From: Chlamydiota bacterium
GTDB lineage: Bacteria > Auribacterota > JACPWU01
Assembly (NCBI GenBank): GCA_016196885.1
Contig: JACPWU010000004.1
Location: 6,235 to 38,234 of the forward strand
Reading direction: 5' to 3'
DNA length: 32,000 nucleotides
How positions within the stretch are numbered: position 1 is the first letter of the stretch; the number at the start of each line of letters is the position of its first letter. The notes below the pieces were generated by a model. It saw only the letters and a list, made by a program, of their open reading frames with translations. It was not told the DNA's origin and did not search any database. Below are positions 589 to 19,392 of the stretch, piece after piece. A program made the position numbers and the translations under genes.

Positions 589-2403
589 ATGAACTCTTAT
601 CGTCCTGAAGAAAAACTTCTGATTGCTTGTACGCGCTTAGCCCGCATTTCTCATCACATTTCTGCTGCAAGCGCCGATTCCGCCTCGTCTCTCCGTGCAG
701 ACTTGGTCGGCCACGCTCAACATACTGTAAAGTATGCCTCGCATGGCCTCGGTCGTCTTCCTCGCATCCAAGGCGGACTCAGGCGTTCCTCGCCGACGAA
801 ATTTGATGAGAAATGCGGGCTAGGCATCTTCCCGGGTCGGACCCAAGAGATCCAGACATTGCTTCATGGTCAAATAAATTGGAATTATTTTCTCCAAATC
901 ATATTTCGACATCGACTTTCGAGCCTTGTTTATAGCGTTCTTAAAAAGTTTTTCGTTCAGGATGTGCCCGCGCCCTTTCTTGCGGAACTCTACGAGTCTT
1001 TTCAAATAGAATCCCGCAATACCCTTTTGAAGGTTCGAGAGCTCATCCCTCTCTTAAATTTATTTGAGGGACGAGGGATCCCGGCCATTCCTTACAAAGG
1101 GCCTATTTTGGCCATGGCACTTTATGGGGATATTTCACTGCGTGAATATCTGGATTTGGATATTTTAATTCGTCGAGAGGATGTCATGAAGGCCAGAGGC
1201 ATTTTGACGTCTCAAGGTTACGAGCCCCGTTTTTCTCTCTCGGTCTGGCAACAGGCGTTCTTGCTTGAATATGATTGTGAGCAGTCTTTTTCAAAAGAAG
1301 GCGTTCGTGTGGATCTTCATTGGGGAACAGATCTTAAGCACCTTTCCTTCTCTCGTTTTAGCGACCAGAACTTGTGGGAGAATCTGGATGAGATAAATTT
1401 TGGAGGAAGAACCCTTCGTACTTTTTCGCCCGAAAATTTGCTTCTCATCCTTTGTTTTCATGGAGCCAAGCATGGATGGAGTTGCTTGAATTGGATTTGC
1501 GACATGGCGTGCCTCATTTGTAAACATTCTCAGATAGATTGGCAAGGGGCGTTCAGGAAGGCCAGAGAGTTGAACGGGGAGAGAATGCTTTTACTCGGGC
1601 TTTGCCTGGCTCGAGATCTCTATACAGTGGAATTACCAGATGAATTGATTCAGAGAATCGATCAAGATCTACAGGTGTTGTCCCTGGCCAGAAGAATCAA
1701 GAAAAGGCTTTTCCAAAAACGCGATGCCTGGACAAGATTTTGGAATGATGTGATTTATCTCCGGGCCATGGAGGGACTGGGCAATCGGTTTCATCATGGT
1801 TTGAGGTATGTGATGCCCACCCCCGCCGAATGGCTCGCCATCCCACTTCCACAAATTCTTTATCCGCTTTATTATTTCTTGAGGCCCATGCGCCTTCTGG
1901 TAAAATATGTTTGTCGTTTGTTTCGAAAATCTCCAAAGTTAGATTTGTCCCTGTTTGTGCCAGCACCTCTTTGGGTGGTGGAGAAGATGTTGGAGCTTGC
2001 CCAGGTGAAGAGCGATGATGTTGTCTATGATTTGGGCTGCGGGGATGGCCGGATGGTTGTTATGGCGGCTCAACGGTGGGGGGCTCGGGGGATAGGTGTA
2101 GATGTTGATCCTCAGCGTATCAGAGAAGCAAAGGATTACGCCCAGCGAGAAGGGGTAGAACATCTTGTCAAATTTTTGAGGCAAGATGCAAAGAAAACGC
2201 AAGTGTCTACTGCCACTCTTTTGATGCTGAACTTGCCCTCCACCGCTTATCCTAAGCTTAAGCCATTGTTGGAACGGCTTAGATCGGGGACCCGGATTGT
2301 GACGCGCATCTTTTATCTGGATCATTTGACTCCTCTCAAACAAGAGGTATTTAAAGATGATGAAAAATTCACCCACGTCCTTTATCTTTATGAAGTACCT
2401 TAG
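589..2403 (+). CDS. Fusion protein: uncharacterised nucleotidyltransferase (PF14907/NTP_transf_5-like) plus C-terminal class I SAM-dependent methyltransferase, with a 61-codon repeat-derived insert near the N-terminus
   Basis: The N-terminal EEKLLIACTR...IQTLLHGQINWNYFLQIIFRHRLSSLVYSVL and PYKGPILAMALYGDISLREYLDLDILIRRED match the NTP_transf_5 pattern seen next to lasso clusters. The C-terminal VVYDLGCGDGRMVV...GIGVDVDP is SAM-binding motif I. No Shine-Dalgarno sequence precedes the ATG at 589, so the start is uncertain. Confidence 0.7.
   Translation: MNSYRPEEKLLIACTRLARISHHISAASADSASSLRADLVGHAQHTVKYASHGLGRLPRIQGGLRRSSPTKFDEKCGLGIFPGRTQEIQTLLHGQINWNYFLQIIFRHRLSSLVYSVLKKFFVQDVPAPFLAELYESFQIESRNTLLKVRELIPLLNLFEGRGIPAIPYKGPILAMALYGDISLREYLDLDILIRREDVMKARGILTSQGYEPRFSLSVWQQAFLLEYDCEQSFSKEGVRVDLHWGTDLKHLSFSRFSDQNLWENLDEINFGGRTLRTFSPENLLLILCFHGAKHGWSCLNWICDMACLICKHSQIDWQGAFRKARELNGERMLLLGLCLARDLYTVELPDELIQRIDQDLQVLSLARRIKKRLFQKRDAWTRFWNDVIYLRAMEGLGNRFHHGLRYVMPTPAEWLAIPLPQILYPLYYFLRPMRLLVKYVCRLFRKSPKLDLSLFVPAPLWVVEKMLELAQVKSDDVVYDLGCGDGRMVVMAAQRWGARGIGVDVDPQRIREAKDYAQREGVEHLVKFLRQDAKKTQVSTATLLMLNLPSTAYPKLKPLLERLRSGTRIVTRIFYLDHLTPLKQEVFKDDEKFTHVLYLYEVP
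638..822. mobile_element. MITE-like palindromic element, copy A (185 bp), inserted in frame in the nucleotidyltransferase CDS
   Basis: There is a perfect 19-bp terminal inverted repeat: tagcccgcatttctcatca (638-656) and tgatgagaaatgcgggcta (804-822). The central hairpin is catact-gtaa-agtatg (721-736). It is about 90% identical to a second copy at 8251-8435. Both copies begin and end with TA. Confidence 0.6.
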
Positions 2404-2460
2404 AAAAGGTGTAACGCAATAAAAACCTATCAAGCCTTCGGATTAAAATTTAGCACTGAT

Positions 2461-3276
2461 TTGGAAATTCCAGAATTTTCCCTGGCCTCATTTCTTCCGG
2501 AATCAGCGGATGCAGAGATCTTCTGTGGCAAGGTCCCTGATTTGAAGCCTCATTCTAAACAACTCGTTCTCGATATTAAGGAGGTCGCTCGTTTTTTAAT
2601 CACGGAGGGCAGAAAAATTATTTATGAGCCTTGTAGAAATTCTGATCAAGACACCCTTCGTTTGTTTTTACTCGGCTCTTGCATGGGGGCTCTCATGCAG
2701 CAGCGAGGTCATGTCGTGCTTCATGGGAATGCGATTTCTAGGGATGGGAAAACGTGTCAAGTGTTTGTGGGAGATCGAGGGGCAGGGAAATCAACCCTGG
2801 CGGCTTGGTACTACCAACAAGGTGCTTATGTCCTGGCCGATGACGTGTGTGCGATTGGTTTTGATCGAAATGGAAAGCCTTATGTGATTCCAAGTTTTCC
2901 ACAGATAAAGTTATGGCAGAAAGGGGCAGAGCTTCTTGAAATCAACACTTCTTATCTTCGTCGCGTACGCCCTGGGGATGATAAATTCGGACTTCCCATT
3001 CACTCTCAATATTGTGACCATCCCTTGCCCTTGACAGAAGTGATAGAAATTAAGAGCCGATCCTTCACGCGTATCCCCCTCACTGGCACAGAAAAAATTA
3101 AAATATTGATCCAGCATAGCTATCGCTACCATTTTCTGCGTGCGATGGTATTGGAATACACTTATTCAAGAAGTTTAGCTCGTTTAGCACAGCAAGTGGA
3201 TTTTGCAAAAATGGGCAGGGTCAACTTGGATTTTCTTAGCATTCCGGCGAAGAGGCCTTACGATGCAAAGTCTTAA
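2461..3276 (+). CDS. HPr kinase/phosphorylase-related kinase (lasso-peptide kinase type)
   Basis: HVVLHGNAISRDGKTCQVFVGDRGAGKSTLAAWYYQQGAYVLADDV contains a Walker A motif in the HprK C-terminal-domain context. It is adjacent to lasso B/C genes. The TTG start has no clear SD, so the start is uncertain. Confidence 0.7.
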   Translation: MEIPEFSLASFLPESADAEIFCGKVPDLKPHSKQLVLDIKEVARFLITEGRKIIYEPCRNSDQDTLRLFLLGSCMGALMQQRGHVVLHGNAISRDGKTCQVFVGDRGAGKSTLAAWYYQQGAYVLADDVCAIGFDRNGKPYVIPSFPQIKLWQKGAELLEINTSYLRRVRPGDDKFGLPIHSQYCDHPLPLTEVIEIKSRSFTRIPLTGTEKIKILIQHSYRYHFLRAMVLEYTYSRSLARLAQQVDFAKMGRVNLDFLSIPAKRPYDAKS

Positions 3277-3874
3277 TTTTTTTAGACACTGCGGTCTCTT
3301 TATTCAGGAGAATTTTTTGGATGTGCAAACCTGTGCTAAAATACAAGATGAAATGAGATCTGCTGTTGGGAAAGACGGACAGATCTACTCTCAAAGAGAA
3401 CAAACTTTTGTCGTGGATCATGAGATCAGAAAAGTGAAATCATTTCAGGTTTCACAAGCGACAGAAGGGTATGTCAAAGATCGCCTTCTTAAAATTCGGC
3501 CAACCCTGGAGAATTATTTTCAGGTTCAACTGACGGGGCATCGCAGACCTGTATTTCTTTTTTACGAGAAGGGGGACTTTTATAGAGCGCATTCTGATGT
3601 GGGTGGTTTGGATTCAAAGGTTCCGCATATGGCCTCTCGCAAAATCTCCATAGTGATATTTCTGAATGCCGAGTCGTCTCTCCCAAGTTCTGAAACCTAT
3701 TGCGGGGGTGCATTGACCTTTTTTGGAATTCTGAATAATTCCAAGTGGAAGCCGTATGGATTTCCACTCAAAGGAGAGAAAGGATTGTTGGTTGCTTTTA
3801 GGTCAGAGGAAATACACGAGGTTTTGCCTGTCACGTCAGGAGTGCGCTCGACCCTTGCGGTGTGGTTTAATTGA
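3263..3874 (+). CDS. 2-oxoglutarate/Fe(II)-dependent oxygenase (prolyl-4-hydroxylase-like)
   Basis: It carries an HxD triad (FYRAHSDVGG), a distal His (EEIHEVLPVTSGVRSTLAVWF) and the 2OG-binding Arg. I prefer the ATG at 3263 (MQSLNFF, SD gaagagg 7 nt upstream, 14-nt overlap with the kinase stop) over the track TTG at 3203. Confidence 0.7.
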   Translation: MQSLNFFRHCGLFIQENFLDVQTCAKIQDEMRSAVGKDGQIYSQREQTFVVDHEIRKVKSFQVSQATEGYVKDRLLKIRPTLENYFQVQLTGHRRPVFLFYEKGDFYRAHSDVGGLDSKVPHMASRKISIVIFLNAESSLPSSETYCGGALTFFGILNNSKWKPYGFPLKGEKGLLVAFRSEEIHEVLPVTSGVRSTLAVWFN

Positions 3875-3890
3875 GAATTGGTTTTTACCA

Positions 3891-4076
3891 TCAAGAATTT
3901 GCATCGTTTGGGTAAACACCCCCGTCCACTGGGAGGCTCATCGTTCCACTCCCTGTGGAGTGGAGTTCAATTTTTTCAAGCGTAGGGGGCACCCATGGCT
4001 TTTTTTGAAGCACAGTCCCGATAGAGGTGTCTTTTCCTCCGTCCAGTTTCTGAGAGGGGAGGTGAGAGCTTTTCAT
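3891..4076 (-). CDS. Lasso peptide precursor (A peptide), 61 aa; predicted core SGTMSLPVDGGVYPNDANS
   Basis: An internal ATG (4076..4074) lies within track ORF 3891..4136. It gives MKSSHLPSQKLDGGKDTSIGTVLQKKPWVPPTLEKIELHSTG/SGTMSLPVDGGVYPNDANS. The leader has KKxWxxPxL and Thr at -2. The core has Asp9 for a 9-residue macrolactam and a C-terminal Ser. The gene lies 19 nt downstream of B2 on the same strand. A GTG at Val22 is a possible alternative start. Confidence 0.7.
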   Translation of the reverse strand: MKSSHLPSQKLDGGKDTSIGTVLQKKPWVPPTLEKIELHSTGSGTMSLPVDGGVYPNDANS

Positions 4077-4095
4077 AGCATAGGTTCCTTTTCTT

Positions 4096-4560
4096 TTAAA
4101 TTTTATTTTGATGGGAATACATTCCCACAATGACATAATTCAAATGCGGCTGAGCACCTACAACGGGAATGTTCTTATAGCATACCCAGGCATGGGCATC
4201 GTATTTTTTATGTGAGGAATCTGATTTTTTTAAACCAAGATACACAGTGCCAGATAACCTTCTTCGAGCCAGCATCCATTGGGCTGCCATGGCTTGATCC
4301 AGACATTTGCTATGCCAAGGCAGGTTACAACGCACGATATCAATACCCTTCTGAATAAGGCGAAATGTATTCGGATCGGAGGTTGTGTCTTCTTTACGCA
4401 AGGGAGGATCTATCCTCTTAGAGCCAAGATATTTTAAAAGGATTCGGGAAGGAACAAATTGTATCAAGAGCTTGGCCAAAAAGAGATGGAAAAACGCTTC
4501 TCGACACAAGGAGCGTAACTCTGGGGACAACCGTCGATAAGTTTTAAATTTAGCTCGCAT
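4096..4560 (-). CDS. Lasso peptide biosynthesis B2 protein (transglutaminase-like Cys protease, leader peptidase)
   Basis: WHSKCLDQAMAAQWMLARRRLSGTVYLGL...YDAHAWVCY shows the catalytic Cys and His in the PF13471/McjB C-domain arrangement. It overlaps B1 by 11 nt. Confidence 0.8.
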   Translation of the reverse strand: MRAKFKTYRRLSPELRSLCREAFFHLFLAKLLIQFVPSRILLKYLGSKRIDPPLRKEDTTSDPNTFRLIQKGIDIVRCNLPWHSKCLDQAMAAQWMLARRRLSGTVYLGLKKSDSSHKKYDAHAWVCYKNIPVVGAQPHLNYVIVGMYSHQNKI

Positions 4561-4849
4561 GACGGGTGACCTTTAACAGATGATGTGCATTTAACATATT
4601 TAAAAAGGTTCCTGTCTCCTGCTTACACTGCTCAGGACCTATTGTATAGCACTGCGTCAATTGGCTGAGGAGATCTTGAAGGGATATGGGCTTTTCCAAA
4701 AGCTCCCAGATCTTCGTTCCTACAGGGTTCAAACCAAAATAACAACCTGAGGCTTCATCCAACATCACGGTCTCATCATCAATTTTGGTCGTGAATAGAT
4801 CGTCCCTGTGAACCAGTCTATCGCTCAGATCAAAGAGAGTGTTTCCCAT
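4550..4849 (-). CDS. Lasso peptide biosynthesis B1 protein (PqqD-like RiPP recognition element)
   Basis: KIDDETVMLDEASGCYFGLNPVGTKIWELLEKPISLQDLLSQLTQCY is the PqqD-family fold signature. I prefer the ATG at 4849 (MGNTLFDL, SD aaagagg about 10 nt upstream) over the GTG at 4873. Confidence 0.75.
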   Translation of the reverse strand: MGNTLFDLSDRLVHRDDLFTTKIDDETVMLDEASGCYFGLNPVGTKIWELLEKPISLQDLLSQLTQCYTIGPEQCKQETGTFLNMLNAHHLLKVTRHAS

Positions 4850-4928
4850 GATGGATTCGCCTCTTTCCTGCACTGTTTGGAATCAATGGATCAATAGGGT
4901 TGGTCACCTTTCACTTGATTCAGACCTC

Positions 4929-4957
4929 ATTATGCCTCAACATGGGACTGTCGTCAA
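4929..4957 (-). promoter_or_regulatory. Candidate sigma70-type promoter for the B1-B2-precursor operon
   Basis: The reverse strand reads TTGACG (4957-4952), a 17-nt spacer, then CATAAT (4934-4929). This is about 80 nt upstream of the B1 ATG. Confidence 0.4.
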
Positions 4958-4984
4958 TATTCATTTAGCATCCGCATGGGGGAC

Positions 4985-5014
4985 TGGACAATGATGATGA
5001 AGGCCCGGTATATT
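4985..5014 (+). promoter_or_regulatory. Candidate sigma70-type promoter for the divergent methyltransferase gene
   Basis: TGGACA (4985-4990), an 18-nt spacer, then TATATT (5009-5014). It is followed by SD aagagagg (5025-5032) and the GTG at 5039. Confidence 0.3.
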
Positions 5015-5038
5015 TTGGTTCAATAAGAGAGGTCCAGG

Positions 5039-6373
5039 GTGAAGGTTCTTGAATTTCATGGCATAGATCATTTAGAAACAGATTCCATCAGCAAGGCGAA
5101 TCTTTTTCCGATCATTTCTCAACTAGATATTCTGAGACAAAAGGGGCATCGTTTAATCCACAAGGCGGGTTTCATCCTGGGTCAAGATTTTGTCTGTGTC
5201 AAGAGGGGATCTAAACTTGAGATAAAAAATATTTCAGGGTTGAAAGTCTGTCGTAAAGCCCATTTGCTAGAAGCCTTTCGCGCCTTCATAAAGGCCGATC
5301 GAGTGGAGCCTGGTTTTCAGGCAACCCCTGACGAGTTTCTTCTATATCTGGCTCAAAAATCCTGGCCTTTAAGGGCCTCTTTATCTCTTGTACAGGATGA
5401 GCTTTGTGGACTGTGGAAGATTGCGCTTTTGGAACGGAGCCGCATTCGAGACGCTTGTGAATATCAATACACTTTACCGGAGTGGTTGAGGGATATGGTG
5501 ATTCTTTTGCCGCCAGAACAGTTTGAAGGGAGATGGGATTCCCATCATCCGAATGTCCTTCGCAGTCGTTCTTCTATCCAGATAGGACGTTTAGGGATTC
5601 AAAAACAAAAGGTGATGGTGATGGAAACATGGATGGATTTAATTCACACCGTTGGAATTTCATCTTCCGTTTTATCTTTTCAAAATCAGGGGGATGCCCC
5701 TCCCCTTTTTCATTATCAAGGCCAGGAGGTCATGCGTCAGGCCATCTCACAATCCTTGGGTTCACCGTTAGCGGTACGTCGTTCAACAGCATCTCTCAAT
5801 GTTGGTTATTGGCAAGCTCGAGAAGAGAAACCTCGTTCTTATTTTGACCCTGAGCTTAGAGAACATTTGCGCAAAGAAGTGGATTCTCTCCTTCCGACTC
5901 AAGGCACTCTTCTTGATATAGCAAGTGGTTCTGCTCCAGTATGCTCAAGGGAAAATCGTGTAGTGAAAGGCGTTGGATTGGTTGAAAAATCTATGCGTGC
6001 CAATAAAATTTTATCTGAGTTCAAAGTTCATGACTTTAATCAAGATCCGAATATTCCTTATCGTGAAAGATTTGATGCGGCAGTGATCTCTTTTGCTGTG
6101 ATGTACTTTACCTATCCTATTGAACTCTTGTGTTCTATTCGTCAGCATCTTAAAGGAGGTGGGAGGTTGGTGATGATTTTCTCAGAACTTTTTTTCGATG
6201 CCTCCGTGTCCGTTAATGCTTGGAATTTCCCTAGGGTTTACGGTTTTAGAAATCGCTGCGAGGTCATCTTAAATTACTTCGAAAGGGCAGGAGGATTTGG
6301 GAAGGTTCATCAAAGGACGGTGAACGATCACTTTTTTATATTTTTTGCAGATGCTCAACCAGAAATGATATAA
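5039..6373 (+). CDS. Two-domain protein: unrecognised ~270-aa N-terminal domain plus C-terminal class I SAM-dependent methyltransferase
   Basis: The C-terminus has LLDIASGSAPV (motif I-like) ...FDAAVISFAVMYFTYPIELLCSIRQHLKGGGRLVMIF (motifs II/III). The GTG start has a good SD. The 3' end overlaps the cyclase 3' end by 19 nt in convergent orientation. Confidence 0.6.
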   Translation: MKVLEFHGIDHLETDSISKANLFPIISQLDILRQKGHRLIHKAGFILGQDFVCVKRGSKLEIKNISGLKVCRKAHLLEAFRAFIKADRVEPGFQATPDEFLLYLAQKSWPLRASLSLVQDELCGLWKIALLERSRIRDACEYQYTLPEWLRDMVILLPPEQFEGRWDSHHPNVLRSRSSIQIGRLGIQKQKVMVMETWMDLIHTVGISSSVLSFQNQGDAPPLFHYQGQEVMRQAISQSLGSPLAVRRSTASLNVGYWQAREEKPRSYFDPELREHLRKEVDSLLPTQGTLLDIASGSAPVCSRENRVVKGVGLVEKSMRANKILSEFKVHDFNQDPNIPYRERFDAAVISFAVMYFTYPIELLCSIRQHLKGGGRLVMIFSELFFDASVSVNAWNFPRVYGFRNRCEVILNYFERAGGFGKVHQRTVNDHFFIFFADAQPEMI

Positions 6374-8181
6374 CTGAGATAACCACACAGCCCTAGACAA
6401 CGCATGTAATTCAAGCGATATTCTACAGCAATATCGTGGTTCTGTTTTTCAATAAAGGGTAAGGCCTTCCACCGACTCAGGATTTTAGAATAATCATAAA
6501 AATCCCAAACCACGGGTAAATCCTTCCATTGTTCAAGTTGCATCAGACGTTTTGAATGATGGGTGTTGTATTGTAAATACCAGTCTGCTGATTGCTCGCC
6601 CCGATAGGGATTGTGGCGGATGGCTTGAGGCACAATATCATCCAATCCTTCACGAACGAGTAATCGGCGCTCTAATTTGCCATAGCCTTTCCAATAAACC
6701 CATTTGGGAATGTTATAACAGAATTTTACAATTTCTAAATCACGCGTTGGGTCTAGCTCATGAATGCCATACCACAATGCCATCGGGGTCATGTAGCTTA
6801 ACCGTGGCGTGCTTCCACGTCCTAAAAGCATCCATACATGTTCATTGAATCCAGCAGCGATTTCTTGACGCATGATCTGACGCGCCATCTTTGATTTTTT
6901 AAAAACAGGATGACATTGTTTTAAATAATCACCATATGCCGTGTAGGGCCTCAGCCAATTCTTCAAGGTCGAAAGGTTAGAACGAATGTTTCGCAAACCC
7001 TCGAAACCTCCCTTCCAAGATAGACTTGCATTTCCACCTCCCGCAGATAATAAGATGCGCCCTTCGTGGGTGAGGGTCTCATCGTATGAAGCCAGAATCC
7101 AATCAAAATGGGTCACGTTACGAACGGGCTGGTCAATGTAAGGATAGAATGTTTTTAAGAGTTCAAAAATATCTGTTTCCGGAGATGCTTGATAAGCCTT
7201 GTGTTGAATATTAGGATAAGCCTTAAGTACTTCCTTAACCAAATGCATTTCGTGATAATACCAGCCGGGATGGAAACTCGGGCCCTCCAGTCCGAGTGGA
7301 ATTTCTGTAAAACCATGAAGGACTTGATTGCGTTGGGCAAGAATTTTAGCGGCCATCGATGCTACTGAACTGGAGTCGAGGCCTCCACTGATATGGGCAT
7401 GAACAGGAAATGAAGTTCTTAAACAGTTGCTCACGGCCTCTTCAAACAATGAGGAAAAATCCCTGTAATAATCTTCTCTTCTCTGATGGCGAATTCTGGA
7501 TCGATTGCGGGTCAATTCCCAGTAGGAGCCTAAATGTATTTGATGGTTCTTTAAGTAGAGGTCACTTGCAGGAGGAAGTTTCTCGACCTCTCGATAGCTG
7601 GTTTGAGTCAGAGGAGCCGAATCCAAAGCGAAATGTGCGAATAGATTTTCATTGATGGAGCAAGAATCACATAAGATTCGAAAGGGACTGAAGTAATTGG
7701 CAAAGATCAAATAATGGTTTTTCTGATAAGCATAGAAACAAGGTTGATTCCCCAGCGGATCGGTCGCGATCCATAAAGATTGATGAGAGGGATCCCATAT
7801 GGAAAATGAAAAATGACCTTGTAAATGATGAACGCAATCTTTATCCCATTTCTCGTAGGCAGCTAGAACGAAGGCGCAGTCAGACATGGTTTTTGATTCC
7901 GCTAAGGAAAGGCCCAGGGCTTCAAGAAGGGTATTGCGATTTGTTAAGTAGATATGGCCAACGATGAGGCAACTTGATTGACGAGACCTGTAAGGCATTA
8001 ACCCTTGTGAGCATTCAGGGGTGACAAAACGTTGCGTACAAACCAGGCCCACATTTTTTTCTATGAAAACGGCTTTGTGATCTGGCTTCCATTTTGGGCT
8101 TCTAAAGGCAGTTTGAATCAGCTTGTCACGATCGATAGGCTTTTCATCTAATCGAATCATTCCACAAAATGCATTTATCAT
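6355..8181 (-). CDS. Lasso peptide isopeptide-bond-forming cyclase (asparagine synthetase B-like, C protein)
   Basis: The 608-aa protein has an AsnB-like N-terminus (AFCGMIRLD) and the PP-loop ATP-pyrophosphatase motif HAHISGGLDSSSVASMA. It is clustered with B1, B2 and the precursor. Confidence 0.8.
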   Translation of the reverse strand: MINAFCGMIRLDEKPIDRDKLIQTAFRSPKWKPDHKAVFIEKNVGLVCTQRFVTPECSQGLMPYRSRQSSCLIVGHIYLTNRNTLLEALGLSLAESKTMSDCAFVLAAYEKWDKDCVHHLQGHFSFSIWDPSHQSLWIATDPLGNQPCFYAYQKNHYLIFANYFSPFRILCDSCSINENLFAHFALDSAPLTQTSYREVEKLPPASDLYLKNHQIHLGSYWELTRNRSRIRHQRREDYYRDFSSLFEEAVSNCLRTSFPVHAHISGGLDSSSVASMAAKILAQRNQVLHGFTEIPLGLEGPSFHPGWYYHEMHLVKEVLKAYPNIQHKAYQASPETDIFELLKTFYPYIDQPVRNVTHFDWILASYDETLTHEGRILLSAGGGNASLSWKGGFEGLRNIRSNLSTLKNWLRPYTAYGDYLKQCHPVFKKSKMARQIMRQEIAAGFNEHVWMLLGRGSTPRLSYMTPMALWYGIHELDPTRDLEIVKFCYNIPKWVYWKGYGKLERRLLVREGLDDIVPQAIRHNPYRGEQSADWYLQYNTHHSKRLMQLEQWKDLPVVWDFYDYSKILSRWKALPFIEKQNHDIAVEYRLNYMRCLGLCGYLSYIISG

Positions 8182-8250
8182 AAGAGATGCCGATGGAGAA
8201 AAAATGAAAGAAATTTACAGGATCGAAGTATAACATCACAGCCGTTCTCC

Positions 8251-8435
8251 TAGAGCGCATTTCTCATCACATTTCTGCTGCTCTTCTCCGATTCCGCCTC
8301 GTCTCTCCGTGCAGACTCGGTCGGCCACGCTCAACATACTGTAAAGTATGCCTCGCATGGCACGGAGCGTCTTCCTCGCATCCAAAGCGGACTCAGGCGT
8401 TCCTCGCGACGAAATCTGATGAGAAATGCGAGCTA
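8251..8435. mobile_element. MITE-like palindromic element, copy B (185 bp), intergenic
   Basis: It aligns end to end, in the same orientation, with 638-822, with about 17 differences including two compensating 1-nt indels. Its termini are tagagcgcatttctcatca and tgatgagaaatgcgagcta. It lies 70 nt upstream of the cyclase start. Confidence 0.6.
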
Positions 8436-8460
8436 GAGGGGGTAGAAGTTCCGGGTCTGT

Positions 8461-8570: not shown

Positions 8571-8972
8571 TTAAAGCTTTGTTCCAGAAAAAGACTTGGT
8601 GACCGTAACCCCATCCAAAGTGGTTTTCTGGGTTCCGGCAAAGGTCTGCCCACTCGCATCAAAGGTGAAACTCATGGAAAGGCTGAATGTTTCTCCCTCT
8701 ACCGTGACGGTTTGAGCCGGGACTGTCACAGTGCTTCCTGAAACGGTTCCCGTCGTTGTAAGGGCAAGAGTTTTATCGGTGATCACCATTTGACTTCCGC
8801 TCTGACTTAAGCTCCAGAGATGGGTTTCTGAAACGCCTGCCTCTGTAAAAGTCACGTTATAATTGCCTGAAAAGTCTGCTGCGGGGCCTTCTGTATCATT
8901 GTCGCAACCCGTGATAAGGAGAGCAAAAAGGGTCATGGCTGCCCCTATTTTTGTGATTCGCATGTTGCTCAA
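8571..8972 (-). CDS. Small secreted lipoprotein of unknown function
   Basis: It has a signal peptide with lipobox LITGC (MSNMRITKIGAAMTLFALLITGCDN). The mature part is Thr/Ser/Gly-rich and looks beta-rich. Confidence 0.6.
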   Translation of the reverse strand: MSNMRITKIGAAMTLFALLITGCDNDTEGPAADFSGNYNVTFTEAGVSETHLWSLSQSGSQMVITDKTLALTTTGTVSGSTVTVPAQTVTVEGETFSLSMSFTFDASGQTFAGTQKTTLDGVTVTKSFSGTKL

Positions 8973-9209: not shown

Positions 9210-11027
9210 TCAAATGCGAGGCGTTCCTTCTAATGCTTCTTTACGCGATTGCAGTTGATAAAGCTTAGCATAAATTCCTTTTTTGGAAAGCAGTGTGGAG
9301 TGTGTTCCCATTTCGACAAGTTCTCCATGATGAAGAACCAGGATGCGACTCACGCTTTTTAAGGTAGCCAGGCGATGAGCGATAATGAACACCGTGCGGT
9401 TTTGAAAAGCCTCTTTCGAAATCCGTTCAATCCATTTTTCTGTCAAGGAATCCATGTGAGCGGTGGCTTCATCCAAAATGAGAATGGAGGGATTTTGAAC
9501 GAGCGTTCGAATGAAGGCAATCATTTGACGCTCACCACTGGACAGATTCGCCCCCTTTTCAAAGATTTCCTTTTTCAAGAAAAGGGGGCCTGACTCAAAG
9601 GGAGCCCTTGCAAAATCGGGCAGGGCCTGAAAGATTTCTCGTCCTTTTTCATCCCAAAGAAAAATATTTTCTTCCACAGTACCTGAGAAAAGAAAAGGTT
9701 CTTGCTGAATGTAACCAATCTTTTGTCGGAGCATGCGTTTATCGGAAGTTTCAGAAATGTTTTTTCCATCGATGAGAATTTCTCCTTGCTCCAGGTCATA
9801 AAATTGCATGAGAAGATGAACAAGGGTCGTTTTCCCTGCACCTGTGTACCCAACGATTCCGATTTTCTCTCCCGCCTCGATGCAAAAATTCAGATTCACC
9901 AAGACCCAAAGAGACTCTTTTTCTTGTGAATAACGAAAAGAGACATTTTGAAATTCAATGGATCCTTGTAGGGAAAGTTTTTCTATTTGAGTTTCTTGCG
10001 GACGAATTTGTTTTTCGAGCGGCCGATCCAGAAATTCAAAGATACGTTCGCAGGAGGTCATGGCCGTGAGAAAGAGATTGTATTTTTCCGTGATGTCTCG
10101 AATCGGTGAATAAAGAGAATGGAGGTAAGCCATGAATGAGACCAGCATTCCGAGTGAAATGGAATTTTTTAAAGAGAGGAAACCTCCGTACCAAATTAAA
10201 AGCAACATGGAAAGACTGCTTAAGAAAGTAATGGTGGGCTGAAAATAGGCGAAGGATTCAAGGGTCTTGATTTGGGTTCGTGTGTAATCTTTAGAAGTGC
10301 GGTCGAAAAGATCATGAAATGTTTTTTGACGGTTGAAAATTTGAATGAGACTCATGCCTGAAATATTTTCGGCGAGCGTTGCATTCAGTTGAGAAAGGGC
10401 CTGTCGGGAATCTCGAGCCGTTTCTCGAATCCTTCGGCCAAAAAATCTTGAGAAAAAGGCCATGATGGGAAAAACACTTACGCAAATGAGGCCCAGGGAG
10501 GGATGAAGAACCATGAGCCAAACGATGATTCCCGCAACCACACAAATATTTCCAAGCGTGACCGCCAGGCCGCTCGTGAAGAGGTCTTGGAGGCTTGAAG
10601 TGTCATTCACCAAGCGGGTGACCAGTCTCCCAATGGGATTTTGGTTAAATTCATGAAGCGGATAGAATTGATATTGTTTCAAGAGATCCTGTCTTAGGTC
10701 ATGAATCACCTCTTGACCCAATTTCGTGAAGCTCAAGTTTTGAAAATAGGTGGCGAGGGCATTGAGGGCATCAAGGGTCAAAAGGATGAATCCAAAAGGT
10801 AAGAGGAGCGCCGCTTTTTTGGGAAGGAGGGCAAGGTCCACAGCTTTTCCCAAAAGCCAGGGAATGGAAAGAGAGGCCCCCGTGGTAAAAAAAACCAATG
10901 AGAGGCTGACGATAAAAAGTTTTCGATATTTTGTGATATAAGGCCAAAGCCTTTTTGTGAAAAGTTCGAAGACTTTAAGACGGAGCCTATTTTCTGGACC
11001 AGAGTCGTCAGGATCTTGCCAGTTCAT
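9210..11027 (-). CDS. ABC exporter, fused permease/ATPase half-transporter (consensus catalytic site)
   Basis: It has a six-helix TMD followed by an NBD. Motifs are Walker A GYTGAGKTT, signature LSSGERQ, Walker B ILILDEAT and H-loop AHRL. It overlaps the upstream partner by 20 nt. Confidence 0.85.
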   Translation of the reverse strand: MNWQDPDDSGPENRLRLKVFELFTKRLWPYITKYRKLFIVSLSLVFFTTGASLSIPWLLGKAVDLALLPKKAALLLPFGFILLTLDALNALATYFQNLSFTKLGQEVIHDLRQDLLKQYQFYPLHEFNQNPIGRLVTRLVNDTSSLQDLFTSGLAVTLGNICVVAGIIVWLMVLHPSLGLICVSVFPIMAFFSRFFGRRIRETARDSRQALSQLNATLAENISGMSLIQIFNRQKTFHDLFDRTSKDYTRTQIKTLESFAYFQPTITFLSSLSMLLLIWYGGFLSLKNSISLGMLVSFMAYLHSLYSPIRDITEKYNLFLTAMTSCERIFEFLDRPLEKQIRPQETQIEKLSLQGSIEFQNVSFRYSQEKESLWVLVNLNFCIEAGEKIGIVGYTGAGKTTLVHLLMQFYDLEQGEILIDGKNISETSDKRMLRQKIGYIQQEPFLFSGTVEENIFLWDEKGREIFQALPDFARAPFESGPLFLKKEIFEKGANLSSGERQMIAFIRTLVQNPSILILDEATAHMDSLTEKWIERISKEAFQNRTVFIIAHRLATLKSVSRILVLHHGELVEMGTHSTLLSKKGIYAKLYQLQSRKEALEGTPRI

Positions 11028-12792
11028 CTTCTATCCTTTGCAGTTCAAGAAGTTCTCGATAAAGTCCGGGCGTCTTCGCCAAATTTAGAGGCATGCCTGT
11101 TTGAATCAGCACCCCTTCTTTAAACACCAAAATTTGGTCGAAGTCCCAGAGTTTTGAAAGGCGATGGGTGATAAGAATTAAGGTTTGGTTTCGAGATAAT
11201 TTTTCATGAGAGAGGTGGTGTAAGATTTCTGATTCTGTATGAGAGTCTACACTGGAGAGCGCGTCATCTAAAATCAAAAGAGGGGCATCTACGGCCAGGG
11301 CCCGGGCCAAGGTCACCCGGGCTCTTTCACCTCCCGAAAGCGTAAGCCCTCGTTCACCCATTTTGAGGTCCAAATTCCATCGTCCCGCTTCTTTGTCCAA
11401 CCCGGAACGTTTCAAAAGTTCAAAAAGCCAAACATCCCCTTTCATTTCAGGAAAGGGCCCCCCCATTAAAATATTCCATCTCAAGGTTTCTCTGAATAGA
11501 AAAACATCTTGGGGGACAAAAGCAATTTTCTTTCTTCGTTCTTCCAGAGGAAGTTTCGAAAAATCGCTGCCTTCCCAGAAAATCATGTGGGGAGGTGTTT
11601 CATGAAGGCCCGCCAAAAGGCGAATCAACGTACTTTTGCCGGACCCGATGGTTCCAACGATGGCGGTGCGACTTCCTTTCTGAATTTGAAAGTTGATGTT
11701 TTGAAGTACAGGGCGGGATGAACCAAGATAGGTGAAAGTCAAATGACGTACTTCTAAAAAGGGAGCATTTATCTGAGAAGGGATTGAGAATGCGTTACCC
11801 TCAGAAGTCTTATTTTCTTCTTTCTCTTGCAACACTTGGCAAATTCTCTCCAAAGAAGTTTTTCCGCGTTGATAATAGGTGACACTGAGTCCAAAGGCAG
11901 TCATGGGCCAGACGAGTTGATCGAGATAACGGGTGAAGGCCGCAAAAGTTCCGAGGCTGATGGAGCCCATGATCACGTCTTTACCGGCAAAAATCAAAAG
12001 AGAGACCAGGCCCAGTGAAACGGCCAATGTGAAAAGAGGGTCGAAAGCGGCCTGGGCGCGGGCGAGCTTTAAATTGAGACGGACGAATTCTTTTCCGATT
12101 TTTGAGAAGCGATTCAATTGTGTCCATTCTCGTGTGAAGGCCTTGATGATGCGAATCCCTTCTAAATTTTCTTGAGAGAAGGCACAGAGTTTCGAAAATT
12201 GATTTTGAACTTTTTCAAAACGTTCGTGAATCAACTTTTCGATCCGGGTGATGATGAAAGGAACCATGAGCATGGGGGCTAGGGAGAGGAAGGCCAATTT
12301 ATAGGATAAGATAAACAGGGTGGGTGGAATGCTCATGAGAAAGAAGGTGGCATCCGCCAAGACCAGCAATCCTGGGCCCAAGGCAAAGCGGACCGCTTCG
12401 GTGTCATTGGTGGCCAAAGACATCAAATCTCCGATCGTGTTCCGATTGTAAAAAGAGGGGGGTAGCTTTTGAAGTTTAGAAAAATAATCGTCCCGGATTT
12501 TTTCCGCTACTTTAAAAGAGCCTCTCATCAGAAACATACGCCAAAAATATCGGCAAATGCTTTGGCCGATAGCGATGGTGATATAGGCCACCCCGAGCCA
12601 AAGGAAGGGAGAGAAATGTTTCTCTCCTTTTAAGGCAAGTGAGGCCCGATCAATAAATTCTTTTAATACAAGAGGAGGGAGGATTTGTAGAAAATCCACA
12701 ATAAAGAGGGTGAGAATGCCAAAGGCAAATTCTCGCTTATAGGGTTTAGCATAGTGATAAAGAGTTTTAAGTGTTTGTGAAAAAGTTATCAT
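11008..12792 (-). CDS. ABC exporter, fused permease/ATPase half-transporter (degenerate Walker B)
   Basis: Motifs are Walker A GTIGSGKST, signature LSGGERA, Walker B LLILDDAL (catalytic Glu replaced by Asp) and H-loop THRL. I moved the start to the ATG at 12792 (MITFSQ, SD gggggag 9 nt upstream), because the 51 upstream codons in the track are translated repeat DNA. Confidence 0.8.
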   Translation of the reverse strand: MITFSQTLKTLYHYAKPYKREFAFGILTLFIVDFLQILPPLVLKEFIDRASLALKGEKHFSPFLWLGVAYITIAIGQSICRYFWRMFLMRGSFKVAEKIRDDYFSKLQKLPPSFYNRNTIGDLMSLATNDTEAVRFALGPGLLVLADATFFLMSIPPTLFILSYKLAFLSLAPMLMVPFIITRIEKLIHERFEKVQNQFSKLCAFSQENLEGIRIIKAFTREWTQLNRFSKIGKEFVRLNLKLARAQAAFDPLFTLAVSLGLVSLLIFAGKDVIMGSISLGTFAAFTRYLDQLVWPMTAFGLSVTYYQRGKTSLERICQVLQEKEENKTSEGNAFSIPSQINAPFLEVRHLTFTYLGSSRPVLQNINFQIQKGSRTAIVGTIGSGKSTLIRLLAGLHETPPHMIFWEGSDFSKLPLEERRKKIAFVPQDVFLFRETLRWNILMGGPFPEMKGDVWLFELLKRSGLDKEAGRWNLDLKMGERGLTLSGGERARVTLARALAVDAPLLILDDALSSVDSHTESEILHHLSHEKLSRNQTLILITHRLSKLWDFDQILVFKEGVLIQTGMPLNLAKTPGLYRELLELQRIEDELARS

Positions 12793-12796
12793 GATT

Positions 12797-13170
12797 TCTA
12801 ACTCCCCCAACCAGACTGTCCGAAAATTTCCCTCCCCCTTGCGACCGAGCCGGGTGCCGCAAAGCGGCCGGCGAGGAAGTGGTCGGAGCCCGTCAGGGCG
12901 CAAACCATGGGGAGGGTTAGGGAGGGGGTGGATTTCTAAAATCAAATATCAAAAATCAAAAATCAAAATGACAATGTAAAATTTAAAATGTTTCTGGATT
13001 CTAAGCATATATAAAATTTTGCATTTTGGTATTTACATTTTGATTTTTGATATATTTTCCACCCTCCCCTAACCCCTCCCATCTAGGGAGGGGAAAAACA
13101 GCATTTTCGGCCCAGCCTGCGGTACCTCCCCTCTTATTTTTTAAGAGGGGACAGAGGGGAGTTAATTCTC
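12797..13170. repeat. Giant imperfect palindrome that occupies most of the 12793-13315 intergenic region (12797-13170)
   Basis: Outer arms: taactccccc (12799) pairs with ggggagttaa (13157). G-rich tggggagggttagggagggggtgg (12908-12931) pairs with ccaccctcccctaacccctccc (13059-13080). AT-rich tandem ATCAAAA arms at 12938-12985 pair with 13024-13056. The centre is near 13000. Local hairpins are cccctccc/gggagggg (13073-13093) and cccctctta/taagagggg (13128-13150). Confidence 0.7.
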
Positions 13171-14052: not shown

Positions 14053-14721
14053 ATGTTGAATTGGTGGCTTCCAGAAGGTATTTCAACCTACAGTGGCAAG
14101 GTGGATGGTATTTTTTACATCATCTTGGCCATCACGGGTCTCATGTTCTTTTTGGTAGAAGGGGCCATTCTTTTCTTTTGCCTTCGCTATCGTCATACCC
14201 AGCACGCGAAAGCCACTTTTGTAGAGGGGAATACCAAGCTGGAAGTGATTTGGACATTGATTCCAGCTGCAATTCTCATTTTCCTGATGTTTAAAAGTCA
14301 AGGGGTGTGGAGCGAGATGAAATCTCACATGCCCGCGAATCCGGATCTTCACATCGAGGTGACGGCTCAACAATTTGCCTGGAATATTCATTATCCGGAC
14401 TCCGAAGTGACCACCTTGAATCAATTGCATATCCCTGTCGGGAAAAAAGTTTTAGTGCAAGTGACCTCAAAGGATGTCATTCACAGTTTTTTTATTCCTC
14501 AATTTCGCCTGAAGCAAGATGCGGTTCCGGGTTCTAAAATCAATGTCTGGTTCGAAGCCACTCAAGTGGGCCATTACGAGCTTGTGTGCGCGGAGTTTTG
14601 CGGTCTTGCGCATTATCGGATGAGGGGCTATTTGAAAATTGAAACACCTGAGGAATTTCAGGCTTGGCTCGACCAGTCTAAGAAAGAAGCCGAGAAGAAG
14701 GGGGACGAGGATGAGTGGTAA
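14053..14721 (+). CDS. ctaC: Cytochrome c oxidase subunit II (CuA, no fused cytochrome c domain)
   Basis: It has two N-terminal TM helices and the CuA site HSFFIP...CAEFCGLAHYRM. Confidence 0.9.
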   Translation: MLNWWLPEGISTYSGKVDGIFYIILAITGLMFFLVEGAILFFCLRYRHTQHAKATFVEGNTKLEVIWTLIPAAILIFLMFKSQGVWSEMKSHMPANPDLHIEVTAQQFAWNIHYPDSEVTTLNQLHIPVGKKVLVQVTSKDVIHSFFIPQFRLKQDAVPGSKINVWFEATQVGHYELVCAEFCGLAHYRMRGYLKIETPEEFQAWLDQSKKEAEKKGDEDEW

Positions 14722-14726
14722 GGACA

Positions 14727-14791
14727 GTCGTGAGTTGTGAGTCGTGAGGGGTGAGTTTCTTAAAAACAGTTATGAGTCGTCGGTCGTGAGT
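14727..14791. repeat. Two direct blocks of tandem TCGTGAG-like 7-mers between subunit II and subunit I genes
   Basis: The blocks are gtcgtgag-ttgtgag-tcgtgag-gggtgag-ttt (14727-14759) and gttatgag-tcgtcgg-tcgtgag-ttt (14769-14794). They are in direct, not inverted, orientation. Confidence 0.6.
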
Positions 14792-14805
14792 TTTAGAGGA
14801 ATAAA

Positions 14806-16431
14806 ATGAAATCGTTCATGCACAAATATGTCTTTTCCACTGATCATAAAATGATCGGTTTGCAATTTCTTTTTACCGCCTTTCTTTTCATGCTGTTTGG
14901 AGGCCTTTTGGCCATGGCCATCCGATGGCAATTGGCTTGGCCTGGGACAAAATTGCCTGTTCTGGGGGTGATCATGCCTGAAACCTACAATGTTATTTTT
15001 ACCATGCACGGCACCTTTATGATTTTCTTTGTGGTCATTGCCATCATGGTGGGTGCCTTTGCGAATTTCACGGTCCCTCTTTTAATTGGTGCGCATGACA
15101 TGGCTTTCCCAAAAATCAACATGGCCTCTTATTGGCTTTTCTTCATCTCTTGTGTGATTATGTTGGCCAGTTTTTTTGCTCCAGGAGGCGCTGCGGCGAC
15201 AGGTTGGACGGCTTATGCCCCTGTGAGTGTGAAGGCTCCGATGGGACAGTCCTTATGGTTGATCAGCCTGATTGTTCTGGGCGTTTCATCCATTTTAGGT
15301 TCGTTAAATTATTTGACCACGATTGTGAATTTACGTGCACCGGGCATGCATTTTTTTAGAATGCCCATGACGGTTTGGGCCATTTTCATCACGGCGATTC
15401 TGGTTCTTCTCGCAACGCCTGTTTTAACAGCGGCTTTGGCCATGCTTCTTTTGGACAGAGTCTTGGACACTACCTTTTTCTTGGCCGGAACTGGACAACC
15501 CGTTCTTTGGCAACATGTGTTTTGGTTTTATTCTCACCCGGCTGTTTATATTATGATTTTGCCGGCCATGGGAATTGCTTCTGATGTTCTCTCTGTTTTC
15601 TCACGCAAACCTCTTTTTGGATATCATGCCATGGTTTATGCGCTGAGTGCGATTGCAGGATTGGGCTTTATTGTCTGGGCACATCACATGTTCGCAACGG
15701 GGTTGAATCCAACTTTGGGAACTACCTTCATGGTGGCGACCATGTTTATTGCAGTTCCCACGGGCGTGAAGATTTTTAACTGGTTGGGGACGCTTTGGGG
15801 AGGTTCCATCCATTTTTCATCTGCTATGCTGAATGCGATTGCTTTTGTGTCCATGTTTGTCATTGGCGGTTTGAGCGGGGTTTTTTTGGCCGCTGCTTCT
15901 CTCGATATTTATTTGCATGATACTTATTTTGTGGTCGCGCACATCCATTATGTTCTTTTTGGCGGCAGTCTTTTTGGTATTTTTGCGGGGATTTATTATT
16001 GGTATCCCAAAATGTTTGGCCGCATGATGAATGAAAAATTAGGCAAGATCCATTTCTGGCTCACGTTTGTTTTTTACAATCTAACCTTTTTCCCCATGCA
16101 TATCATCGGGATTCATGGGATGCCGCGGCGATTCTACGATTACAAACAATATGAATTTTTAAGAGGCTTGGAACCCTTGCAGCTTCTGATCTCCATCAGT
16201 GCCTTTGCCCTTTTTATTTGTCAGCTTCCGTTTGTGTATAATTTCTTTGTGAATCTTTTTGTTGGGAAAAAAGCGCCCAACAATCCTTGGCAGGCCAATA
16301 CGCTTGAGTGGACGATTCCCTCGCCCGCGCCTCATTTGAATTACGCTAAAGTCCCCATCGTATATCGCTGGCCTTATGAATACAGCTTGCCCCATGCCAA
16401 AGAGGATTGGCTGGCGCAGGATCAACCGTGA
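14806..16431 (+). CDS. ctaD: Cytochrome c oxidase subunit I (heme-copper oxidase, A-type)
   Basis: The 541-aa polytopic protein carries WFYSHPAVYIMILP, WAHHMFATG and VVAHIHYVLFGG, which are the heme a/a3-CuB ligands. Confidence 0.95.
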   Translation: MKSFMHKYVFSTDHKMIGLQFLFTAFLFMLFGGLLAMAIRWQLAWPGTKLPVLGVIMPETYNVIFTMHGTFMIFFVVIAIMVGAFANFTVPLLIGAHDMAFPKINMASYWLFFISCVIMLASFFAPGGAAATGWTAYAPVSVKAPMGQSLWLISLIVLGVSSILGSLNYLTTIVNLRAPGMHFFRMPMTVWAIFITAILVLLATPVLTAALAMLLLDRVLDTTFFLAGTGQPVLWQHVFWFYSHPAVYIMILPAMGIASDVLSVFSRKPLFGYHAMVYALSAIAGLGFIVWAHHMFATGLNPTLGTTFMVATMFIAVPTGVKIFNWLGTLWGGSIHFSSAMLNAIAFVSMFVIGGLSGVFLAAASLDIYLHDTYFVVAHIHYVLFGGSLFGIFAGIYYWYPKMFGRMMNEKLGKIHFWLTFVFYNLTFFPMHIIGIHGMPRRFYDYKQYEFLRGLEPLQLLISISAFALFICQLPFVYNFFVNLFVGKKAPNNPWQANTLEWTIPSPAPHLNYAKVPIVYRWPYEYSLPHAKEDWLAQDQP

Positions 16432-16443
16432 AAATACTATCAA

Positions 16444-16519
16444 CAGTCCACGGTCCATCGTCCATAGAGATAAATGATTCCTTTAAAACTGTGGACCATG
16501 GACTGTGGACCATGGACTG
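16444..16519. repeat. Inverted repeat built from tandem GTCCA(T/C)G units
   Basis: The left arm is cagtccacggtccatcgtccat (16444-16465). The right arm is ctgtggaccatggactgtggaccatggactg (16489-16519). The loop is about 23 nt. It lies between ctaD and the ctaA/ctaB fusion. Confidence 0.7.
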
Positions 16520-16533
16520 GTTGTAGGTTTTGA

Positions 16534-18480: not shown

Positions 18481-18488
18481 GAGATACT

Positions 18489-19088: not shown

Positions 19089-19104
19089 TCTCTTCGGGAG
19101 ATTC

Positions 19105-19392
19105 ATGATGGACCAGGAAAAAGTTGAAAATTTCACGCATCCCAATTATGTTGCAGTTTGGATATGGCTTTTGGTTTTAACGGTGTTGGAGGTCTGTGCC
19201 CTTTATTTGCCTTGCGCCAAGGTTGTAAAAATTTCCGCATTGGTATTTTTGGCCATTACGAAGGCTCTTCTTGTGGCCATGTATTTTATGCATCTTAAAT
19301 TTGAGCGCTTGGTTCTGATCGCAGTGATTGTTTATCCTGTGGTTTTATCGTTGGTGTTGACCCTTCTCACGCGTCTAAGTCTTAAGATCTAA
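19105..19392 (+). CDS. ctaF: Cytochrome c oxidase subunit IV (prokaryotic COX4_pro family)
   Basis: The 95-aa three-TM protein has a KALLVAMYFMHLKFE motif. It sits immediately after subunit III. Confidence 0.75.
   Translation: MMDQEKVENFTHPNYVAVWIWLLVLTVLEVCALYLPCAKVVKISALVFLAITKALLVAMYFMHLKFERLVLIAVIVYPVVLSLVLTLLTRLSLKI

Follow-up and report, generated by a model that had tools for sequence, protein, structure and literature searches.

A lasso peptide gene cluster with predicted kinase, nucleotidyltransferase-methyltransferase, and prolyl-hydroxylase-like tailoring enzymes in a Chlamydiae-labeled genome

A 32-kb stretch of the 38,234-bp contig JACPWU010000004.1 (hereafter the window), from a metagenome-assembled genome (MAG) whose proteins are named 'MAG: ... 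[Chlamydiae bacterium]' at NCBI, contains a lasso peptide gene cluster at positions 589–8181. The cluster encodes a precursor peptide, the three lasso enzymes B1, B2, and C, an HprK-like kinase, a nucleotidyltransferase-methyltransferase (NTase-MT) fusion, an Fe(II)/2-oxoglutarate (2OG) oxygenase, and a protein with a second methyltransferase (MT) domain that is referred to here as ORF 5039–6373 (Table 1). All eight open reading frames (ORFs) were found at these coordinates in a six-frame ORF list. Gene calls on L001, a 7,522-bp contig of this organism from the public and independently assembled Logan set, have identical boundaries and give a precursor of 61 aa, B1 of 99 aa, B2 of 154 aa, a 2OG oxygenase of 203 aa, a kinase of 271 aa, ORF 5039–6373 of 444 aa, and a cyclase of 608 aa. 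The region is a real lasso peptide gene cluster and is well supported as such.

Table 1. Features of the lasso peptide gene cluster and its immediate surroundings, in window coordinates.
Feature	Position	Strand	Basis or remark
PF14907 nucleotidyltransferase (residues ~96–345) fused to aKMT-like class I S-adenosylmethionine (SAM) methyltransferase (~456–603)	589–2403	+	
Palindromic element copy 1, resembling a miniature inverted-repeat transposable element (MITE-like), ~190 nt	635–825	.	in frame within the NTase-MT gene
HprK-like peptide kinase (lasso 'K' protein)	2461–3276	+	family alignment, profile against HprK/P
PHD/P4H-like Fe(II)/2OG oxygenase, predicted peptidyl hydroxylase	3263–3874	+	PF13640
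Precursor peptide, 61 aa	3891–4076	-	ORF and gene call; homologs in L002, L010
B2 leader peptidase (transglutaminase-like cysteine protease)	4096–4560	-	PF13471, NF033537
B1 recognition element (PqqD-like) for peptides made by ribosomes and modified after translation (RiPPs)	4550–4849	-	PF05402, NF033536
Divergent intergenic region, B1 versus ORF 5039–6373	4874–5038	.	two best promoter-like matches of the cluster
Orphan 444-aa protein: N-domain of unknown function (~1–250) and class I SAM methyltransferase (~255–435)	5039–6373	+	
Lasso cyclase C (Asn-synthetase-like, ATP-dependent macrolactam synthetase)	6355–8181	-	PF00733 and GATase_7
Palindromic MITE-like element copy 2	8249–8436	.	intergenic, just past the cyclase gene
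ABC half-transporter pair	9210–11027, 11008–12945	-	ABC_membrane and ABC_tran; SmdA/SmdB, MsbA-like

An earlier note on this DNA, made from its letters, had proposed a lasso cluster of the kinase and nucleotidyltransferase type, and searches with hidden Markov models assigned all three of the lasso enzyme families on which that proposal depended. The leader peptidase B expected of a lasso cluster is here split into a PqqD-like RiPP recognition element (RRE), B1, and a transglutaminase-like protease, B2, and the cluster includes the expected Asn-synthetase-like macrolactam cyclase, C. B1 matches PF05402 with 60.7 bits and NF033536 with 65.9 bits. B2 matches PF13471 with 56 bits and the lasso_biosyn_B2 model NF033537 with 69 bits, above its cutoff of 33. 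The top NCBIfam model for C is the lasso cyclase NF033535 (234 bits, E 3e-69, under the equivalog cutoff of 525), and the SGGLDS motif is present in its translation. We consider it likely that this is a class II-type lasso cluster of the kinase/nucleotidyltransferase kind to which paeninodin, pseudomycoidin, and Bsf belong. Its core logic is that of the standard lasso pathway, and it is no new kind of system.

The precursor consists of a leader, MKSSHLPSQKLDGGKDTSIGTVLQKKPWVPPTLEKIELHSTG, followed by a predicted core, SGTMSLPVDGGVYPNDANS. Leader residues W-15, P-12, L-10, and T-2 include WxxPxL, a form of the YxxPxL motif, after which come seven residues, T-G, and a core that begins SGTMSLPVD with Asp9. 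A leader motif, a Thr at -2, and a core Asp/Glu at position 7–9, the features of a lasso precursor, are all present; Leu and Thr(-2) are spaced by 8 residues, versus 10 canonically. Homologous precursors occur in L002 (phmmer E 7e-9; ...KKPWTPPLLEVIKLTSTE then NMTTGMPPDGGTKPNDES), a sister locus described below, and in L010 (...YEAPQLRVYGDIRVLTH then TNMMGGPVDGGGVKGAQKS). The three precursors have in common Thr(-2), core Asp9, a P-x-D-G-G motif, and a C-terminal Ser. Because all three keep these features, the most coherent reading of the sequence is a predicted Ser1–Asp9 isopeptide ring with a 10-residue tail. The core also has both kinds of candidate phospho-acceptor, a C-terminal Ser/Thr (Pade type) in Ser19 and a hydroxyl residue at core position 3 (Bsf type) in Thr3, and both residues are found in the L002 homolog.

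A separate pattern was observed in several related loci, where the leader has the canonical Y-17/P-14/L-12/T-2 form and the first core Asp/Glu is at position 10 or 11 (L090 6666–6827, L112 8542–8763, L118 6886–7074, L149 1802–1999, L170 1010–1198, and L007 5392–5547). Position 3 is Gly in many of the cores ([GHN][VM]G). Described lasso rings have 7–9 residues. Either these precursors are cleaved two residues past the site predicted from T(-2), or their rings are larger than any known.

The kinase sequence alone has no match in Pfam and matches only TIGR04352 ('HprK-related kinase A'), weakly (E 5e-5). In a PDB search with the single sequence, the sole match was to the P-loop of dephospho-CoA kinase, and a family profile was required. 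An alignment of the window kinase and ten homologs from lasso loci (A2) has H88, G107, G109, K110, S111, D127, and D128 invariant, a complete His/P-loop/Asp-Asp motif. The profile of this family returned HprK/P crystal structures first (1jb1, E 3.7e-8), and eight of the 11 family members match PF07475. The identification of an HprK-like kinase made earlier therefore stands through the family alignment and profile, but the PF07475 match is absent for the single sequence. Mutagenesis has shown that the same motif is needed in PadeK/ThcoK and in BsfK (PMC9266682, PMC10368454). Kinase paralogs that lack these catalytic residues occur in L007 (3078–4013) and L002 (16864–17787); the window copy is intact. 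BsfK, from a kinase and NTase cluster, phosphorylates core residue 3, Ser3 (PMC10368454). Since BsfK uses Ser3 and other kinase loci are often without a terminal Ser, Thr3 is a real alternative to Ser19, and the earlier proposal of C-terminal Ser phosphorylation fits a core that ends in Ser19 but is no longer the sole candidate. By analogy with these systems, the phospho-site would be Ser19 or Thr3.

The P4H-like 2OG/Fe(II) oxygenase was confirmed by a PF13640 match of 46.6 bits. Residues H110, D112, H185, and R195 are invariant in an alignment of the family (A3) and make up an HxD...H iron triad and a 2OG-binding Arg. An AlphaFold2 model of the protein has a predicted local distance difference test score (pLDDT) of 93.3 and the double-stranded beta-helix fold of protein prolyl-4-hydroxylases. 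Its best fold matches are the Pseudomonas putida prolyl-4-hydroxylase PPHD (4iw3; E 2e-11, template modeling score [TM] 0.72), Dictyostelium PHD, and human PHD2, with TM of 0.72–0.74 to 4iw3 and PHD2. Homologs at 37%–47% identity are numerous. Pro is present in 18 of 20 cores adjoining 2OG homologs and is common in lasso cores generally, and comparison of 20 candidate cores for a target residue gave no clean conserved motif. Lasso hydroxylation in the review literature is of Asp and Trp only (PMC9266682), and a literature search for hydroxyproline in a natural lasso peptide returned no relevant paper. The 2OG homologs very often adjoin a PqqD-like gene (L090 8699–9612; short contigs L093–L097, L100, L101, L105, L106, and others). 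In L090, a second PqqD lies directly upstream of the oxygenase and apart from the cluster B1, which suggests a dedicated recognition partner of the oxygenase; the window has one PqqD gene.

ORF 589–2403 was verified as a fusion of a nucleotidyltransferase (PF14907, 201 bits) with a methyltransferase of class I. The aKMT family is closest to this MT domain, with matches to PDB 5bxy (E 5e-27), to 5fa8, a protein-lysine methyltransferase (E 2e-25), and to NF041081 (104 bits). In an alignment with ten homologs (A1), the nucleotidyltransferase residues G171 ... D189/D191 (G...DxD) and the SAM-binding segment D481–G487 are conserved. The closest homologs, at 65% and 46% identity, are both in a second Chlamydiae-labeled MAG. 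The earlier note had set the fusion apart from described lasso clusters. The fusion is not special to this locus but a widespread architecture, because a word-indexed protein search returned dozens of 550–580-aa PF14907-MT proteins across phyla, with Chlamydiae and Acidiferrales MAGs as their named sources.

A 61-residue segment of this fusion (residues 17–77; ~nt 637–819) is found only in the window protein and is absent from all ten homologs. It coincides with copy 1 of the palindromic element, whose inverted arms lie at 635–671 and 789–825. The two copies of the element are direct and 94% identical, differ by two 1-nt indels, and enclose nearly all of the cluster. Copy 1 can be read through in the NTase-MT frame with no stop, and its two indels relative to copy 2 compensate each other. 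The element RNA folds into a long hairpin (-93 kcal/mol, z = -7.5), and the short-read contig L001 breaks at both copies. JGI metagenomes were scanned for exact matches to the terminal repeat, and there were none. The element resembles the Rickettsia palindromic elements, which insert in frame in genes of another intracellular lineage.

ORF 5039–6373 scores under the Pfam methyltransferase cutoffs, and a word-indexed protein search with it returned only itself. An exhaustive HMMER search gave 619 matches to residues ~255–435. The methyltransferase domain is real, because the matches that were scanned have no Pfam domains other than methyltransferase ones in that region. The N-terminal region is partly shared only with P0126 and P0150, both larger multidomain proteins. 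P0126 is found among HEAT-repeat and PALP-domain genes, and the contexts of the nearest relatives, P0126, P0122, and P0124, contain no lasso genes, on contigs that are short. No homolog was found among ~170 related loci examined. Several other candidate relationships were rejected. An RRE or winged helix-turn-helix fold in the N-terminus, picked by eye (GLWKIALLER...YQYTLPEWL), had 0.2% probability in hhalign against B1/PqqD and gave nothing in a PDB profile search; homology of its MT domain with that of ORF 589–2403 was rejected at BLASTP E 0.25; and a single-sequence AlphaFold model with pLDDT 36.7 was unusable. The second methyltransferase with an unknown N-domain described earlier is thus upheld as to its methyltransferase domain, but its tailoring role is unsupported because it has no lasso-linked relatives, and the argument for such a role is its position. 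Promoter-like sites lie between it and B1 on the minus strand (4957–4929) and the plus strand (4985–5014), each agreeing at 10 of 12 positions. They are weak evidence because the total site count in the promoter/terminator scan was not above the shuffled expectation.

We searched for related loci in two ways. Eighty loci from species-representative genomes of the Genome Taxonomy Database (GTDB) were fetched with the fusion alignment, and their ORFs were searched with the window proteins. Full-length NTase-MT fusions are present in six loci, with B1 and C nearby in five (L009–L012 from Acidobacteriota/Terriglobia, and L014 from a Methanobacterium MAG) and the kinase in four. Stand-alone PF14907 genes occur with C and the kinase in another six (L013, L015, L020, L025, L026, and L029), and B1 was detected in five of these. 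PF14907 is found with kinase and C in 10 GTDB loci, and an eleventh, L014, has C and B1 with no kinase match. L014 (5628–9983) is from Methanobacterium sp. PtaB.Bin024, an archaeal MAG, where the NTase-MT fusion adjoins a PqqD-like gene and an Asn-synthetase-like cyclase. L007, from another MAG and with a B1 that is 54% identical to that of the window, combines B2, B1, two sulfotransferases, an ABC gene, an HprK-like kinase, an Asp/Asn-hydroxylase-family gene, C, an NTase, and an NTase-MT.

A metagenome scan with the 2OG oxygenase gave a further 80 loci, of which 17 of at least 9 kb were used for counts. B1/B2/C are present in 15 of the 17, the kinase in 14, and PF14907 in eight, always as a stand-alone gene and never MT-fused. 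Three 2OG homologs on long contigs are all in lasso clusters with B1 (PqqD), C, and a PF14907 gene, together with various methyl-, glycosyl-, or carbamoyl-transferases; a more distant homolog, L092, is not in a lasso cluster. Among the loci examined, fusion-type clusters are without a 2OG gene and 2OG-type clusters have stand-alone NTases, and neither the mix of fusion, 2OG, and ORF 5039–6373 nor the pair of fusion and 2OG was seen again. The kinase, the NTase(-MT), and the 2OG oxygenase each co-occur with B/C in other loci, as the earlier note's argument demanded, and this co-conservation with lasso genes, like the gene families and the intact catalytic motifs, is an observation. The cluster is therefore not unique, because public metagenomes contain a large family of clusters like it. 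In line with the earlier note, no described lasso peptide with this tailoring set was found in the searchable literature. Its tailoring is unusually dense relative to characterized lasso peptides but not relative to metagenomic diversity, because the 2OG family recurs as a lasso-associated enzyme in soil metagenomes.

From these genes we infer the step order, the modification sites, the NTase-MT chemistry, and any role of ORF 5039–6373. PsmN-type NTases modify phospho-Ser, and linear precursors are the substrates of CanE-type 2OG enzymes, which B1 assists (PMC9266682, PMC8498205). In the proposed pathway, B1 would bind the 61-aa precursor through the WxxPxL leader motif. The kinase would then phosphorylate a hydroxyl on the still-linear peptide, with Ser19 favored by analogy with PadeK, ThcoK, and PsmK and with Thr3 as the alternative suggested by BsfK. 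The PHD-like oxygenase would hydroxylate a side chain, most likely Pro14 (in a conserved Pro-Asn-Asp tail motif) or Pro7. The PF14907 domain may attach a group to the phosphate, in the way that PsmN attaches hexose, and the fused aKMT-like domain may methylate an unknown acceptor. B2 would cleave after Thr(-2)-Gly(-1), C would close the Ser1–Asp9 isopeptide ring around the tail, and the neighboring ABC pair may export the product. The core less one H2O has a calculated monoisotopic mass of 1861.815 Da. On these analogies the lasso product is probably phosphorylated, hydroxylated, and further decorated.

Several points weigh against this pathway. The chemistry of every step is drawn by analogy, and the product itself is predicted. 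Residue 1 of the core is Ser (Asn or Thr in the homologs), which is less usual than Gly, and an 8-residue Gly2–Asp9 ring is an alternative to the Ser1–Asp9 ring. A C-terminal Ser is often absent from the precursors of kinase-bearing relatives. The 61-residue insertion sits between the first two conserved N-terminal segments of the NTase-MT and may impair its activity, which is uncertain because a mobile element interrupts the gene in frame. ORF 5039–6373 and the ABC genes are linked to the pathway by position only. The cluster lineage also does decay: in L002, its sister locus, the kinase, B1, B2, and the greater part of the 2OG gene are gone. L002/L004 (GCA_016196915.1, Chlamydiae-labeled) holds the closest homologs of the NTase-MT and of C and is degraded. 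In L002 (11644–11991 and 16864–17787), the precursor, C, and two tandem NTase-MT genes are kept, with a kinase paralog that has lost the His, Lys, and Asp-Asp residues. Its precursor homolog and a 50-aa C-terminal remnant of the 2OG gene lie between the two NTase-MT genes. The 21.7-kb locus that was fetched lacks B1, B2, and any active kinase (no B1/B2 within 10 kb), and its flanking genes differ from those of the window. L002 represents the same cluster, decayed or rewired, in another genomic neighborhood.

These observations bear on three other explanations. The window cluster could itself be a decaying remnant, eroded by mobile-element activity and now yielding an unmodified or partly modified peptide or nothing, as the reduced state of L002 and the element copies inside the NTase-MT gene and at the other cluster edge might indicate. 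We regard this as improbable: all eight window ORFs are intact and full length, catalytic motifs are kept in the kinase, the 2OG oxygenase, both NTase-MT domains, and C, B2 scores above its model's cutoff, and the element insertion has preserved the reading frame. A second explanation, that the kinase, NTase-MT, and 2OG oxygenase are the only tailoring enzymes, with ORF 5039–6373 an unrelated methyltransferase and the ABC pair housekeeping, is almost as probable as its opposite. It agrees with the lack of homologs of ORF 5039–6373 in related loci, with the non-lasso contexts of its nearest relatives, and with the mobile element and lipoprotein gene that separate the ABC genes from C. However, ORF 5039–6373 is embedded in the cluster, is divergent from B1 with a 165-bp promoter region in common, and has a 19-nt overlap with the 3' end of C, and the same slot in L002 is held by the second NTase-MT gene, which suggests a position for tailoring genes.

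A mis-binned contig, with the cluster belonging to another phylum (e.g., Acidobacteriota or Verrucomicrobiota) and not to Chlamydiota, has a small chance of being correct. Homologous clusters are mostly from Acidobacteriota and other soil phyla, the aa3 cytochrome oxidase operon and phosphonolipid cluster of the window are atypical of classical chlamydiae, and the Chlamydiae taxon label is the submitter's. Yet the closest homologs of both the NTase-MT and C (E 9e-246 for the latter, against the C gene of L002) are in the second Chlamydiae-labeled MAG, and G+C content is uniform (0.41–0.48) from the cluster to the housekeeping genes of the window.

Upstream of the cluster, the minus strand carries the start of a gene that is oligoendopeptidase-F-like. 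On the other side, a small lipoprotein-like ORF (133 aa; 8571–8972, minus strand), which has a signal peptide, a lipobox (LITGC), and no Pfam match, lies between element copy 2 and the ABC genes. The ABC pair is a possible peptide exporter; ABC genes are inside the clusters of L007, L013, and L015, and their similarity to the window pair is generic. Positions 14053–20466 contain an aa3-type cytochrome c oxidase operon that is complete (COX2, COX1, a CtaA-CtaB fusion, COX3, SCO1, and DUF420). This operon is unusual for classical chlamydiae and bears on the taxon label or on the assumption about lifestyle. Bactofilins are also encoded further along the window. At 24171–30597 is a phosphonate cluster with a PEP mutase-NTP_transf_3 fusion, a split phosphonopyruvate decarboxylase (TPP N/C halves), an aminotransferase, an NTP-transferase/CDP-alcohol phosphatidyltransferase fusion, and an LPG_synthase_TM protein, a gene set consistent with synthesis of lipids that contain 2-aminoethylphosphonate.

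To our knowledge, few lasso tailorings have been characterized: phosphorylation, phospho-glycosylation, C-terminal methylation, Asp/Trp hydroxylation, acetylation, epimerization, citrullination, and aspartimide formation. The window cluster and its many metagenomic relatives suggest a large untested family in which an HprK-like kinase is combined with a PF14907 NTase (often fused to an aKMT-like MT) and a prolyl-hydroxylase-like oxygenase. Solving a single case would give functions to PF14907 and this PF13640 subfamily in hundreds of clusters. The label Chlamydiae is also of ecological interest. A literature search found lasso clusters reported in other amoeba symbionts and not in chlamydiae. 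It is possible, though on balance we doubt it, that the window encodes a lasso peptide with hydroxyproline (from the PHD-type oxygenase) and a methylated phosphate-linked group (from the NTase-MT) that would be the first ribosomal natural product characterized from Chlamydiota. If so, in a host-associated phylum, the peptide could act in competition or host interaction.

The described systems nearest to the cluster share parts of its gene content. Compared with paeninodin from Paenibacillus dendritiformis (PadeK) and with ThcoK/SyanK, the window adds an NTase-MT fusion, a PHD-like 2OG oxygenase, and an orphan methyltransferase. It also comes from a Chlamydiae-labeled genome, not from Firmicutes or Proteobacteria, has a Leu–Thr(-2) spacing of 8 and not 10, and has the gene order B1-B2-A. 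Pseudomycoidin from Bacillus pseudomycoides (PsmK and PsmN) likewise has a kinase and a nucleotidyltransferase-family protein in a lasso cluster, in which the NTase adds a hexose to phospho-Ser (PMC9266682, PMC8498205). The window NTase, likened to PsmN by family and not by sequence, is instead fused to an aKMT-like methyltransferase and interrupted by an element. The Bsf cluster of Bradymonas sediminis (BsfK, BsfN) is, like that of the window, a Gram-negative kinase and NTase lasso cluster with the H-G-G-G-K-S-D-D motif, and its B1 accelerates phosphorylation (PMC10368454). Bsf has a phosphorylated core Ser3, leader Ile(-2), and no oxygenase or methyltransferase, whereas the window precursor has Thr(-2), Thr3, and a C-terminal Ser, so that either phospho-site is possible. 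The lasso cluster of canucin A also encodes an Fe(II)/2OG oxygenase, CanE, which acts on the linear precursor and beta-hydroxylates the C-terminal Asp (PMC9266682). The window enzyme differs in belonging to PF13640, with a model closest to protein prolyl-4-hydroxylases (PPHD, PHD2). Outside described systems, metagenomic clusters (L090, L112, L118, L132, L147, and others) have the same kinase, 2OG family, and PF14907 beside B1/B2/C, and the Acidobacteriota lasso clusters L009–L012 share the NTase-MT fusion and have no relative of ORF 5039–6373. The cluster differs from every described member in its PHD-like oxygenase, NTase-fused aKMT-like MT, and orphan methyltransferase, and the first two of these are common in unstudied metagenomic lasso clusters.

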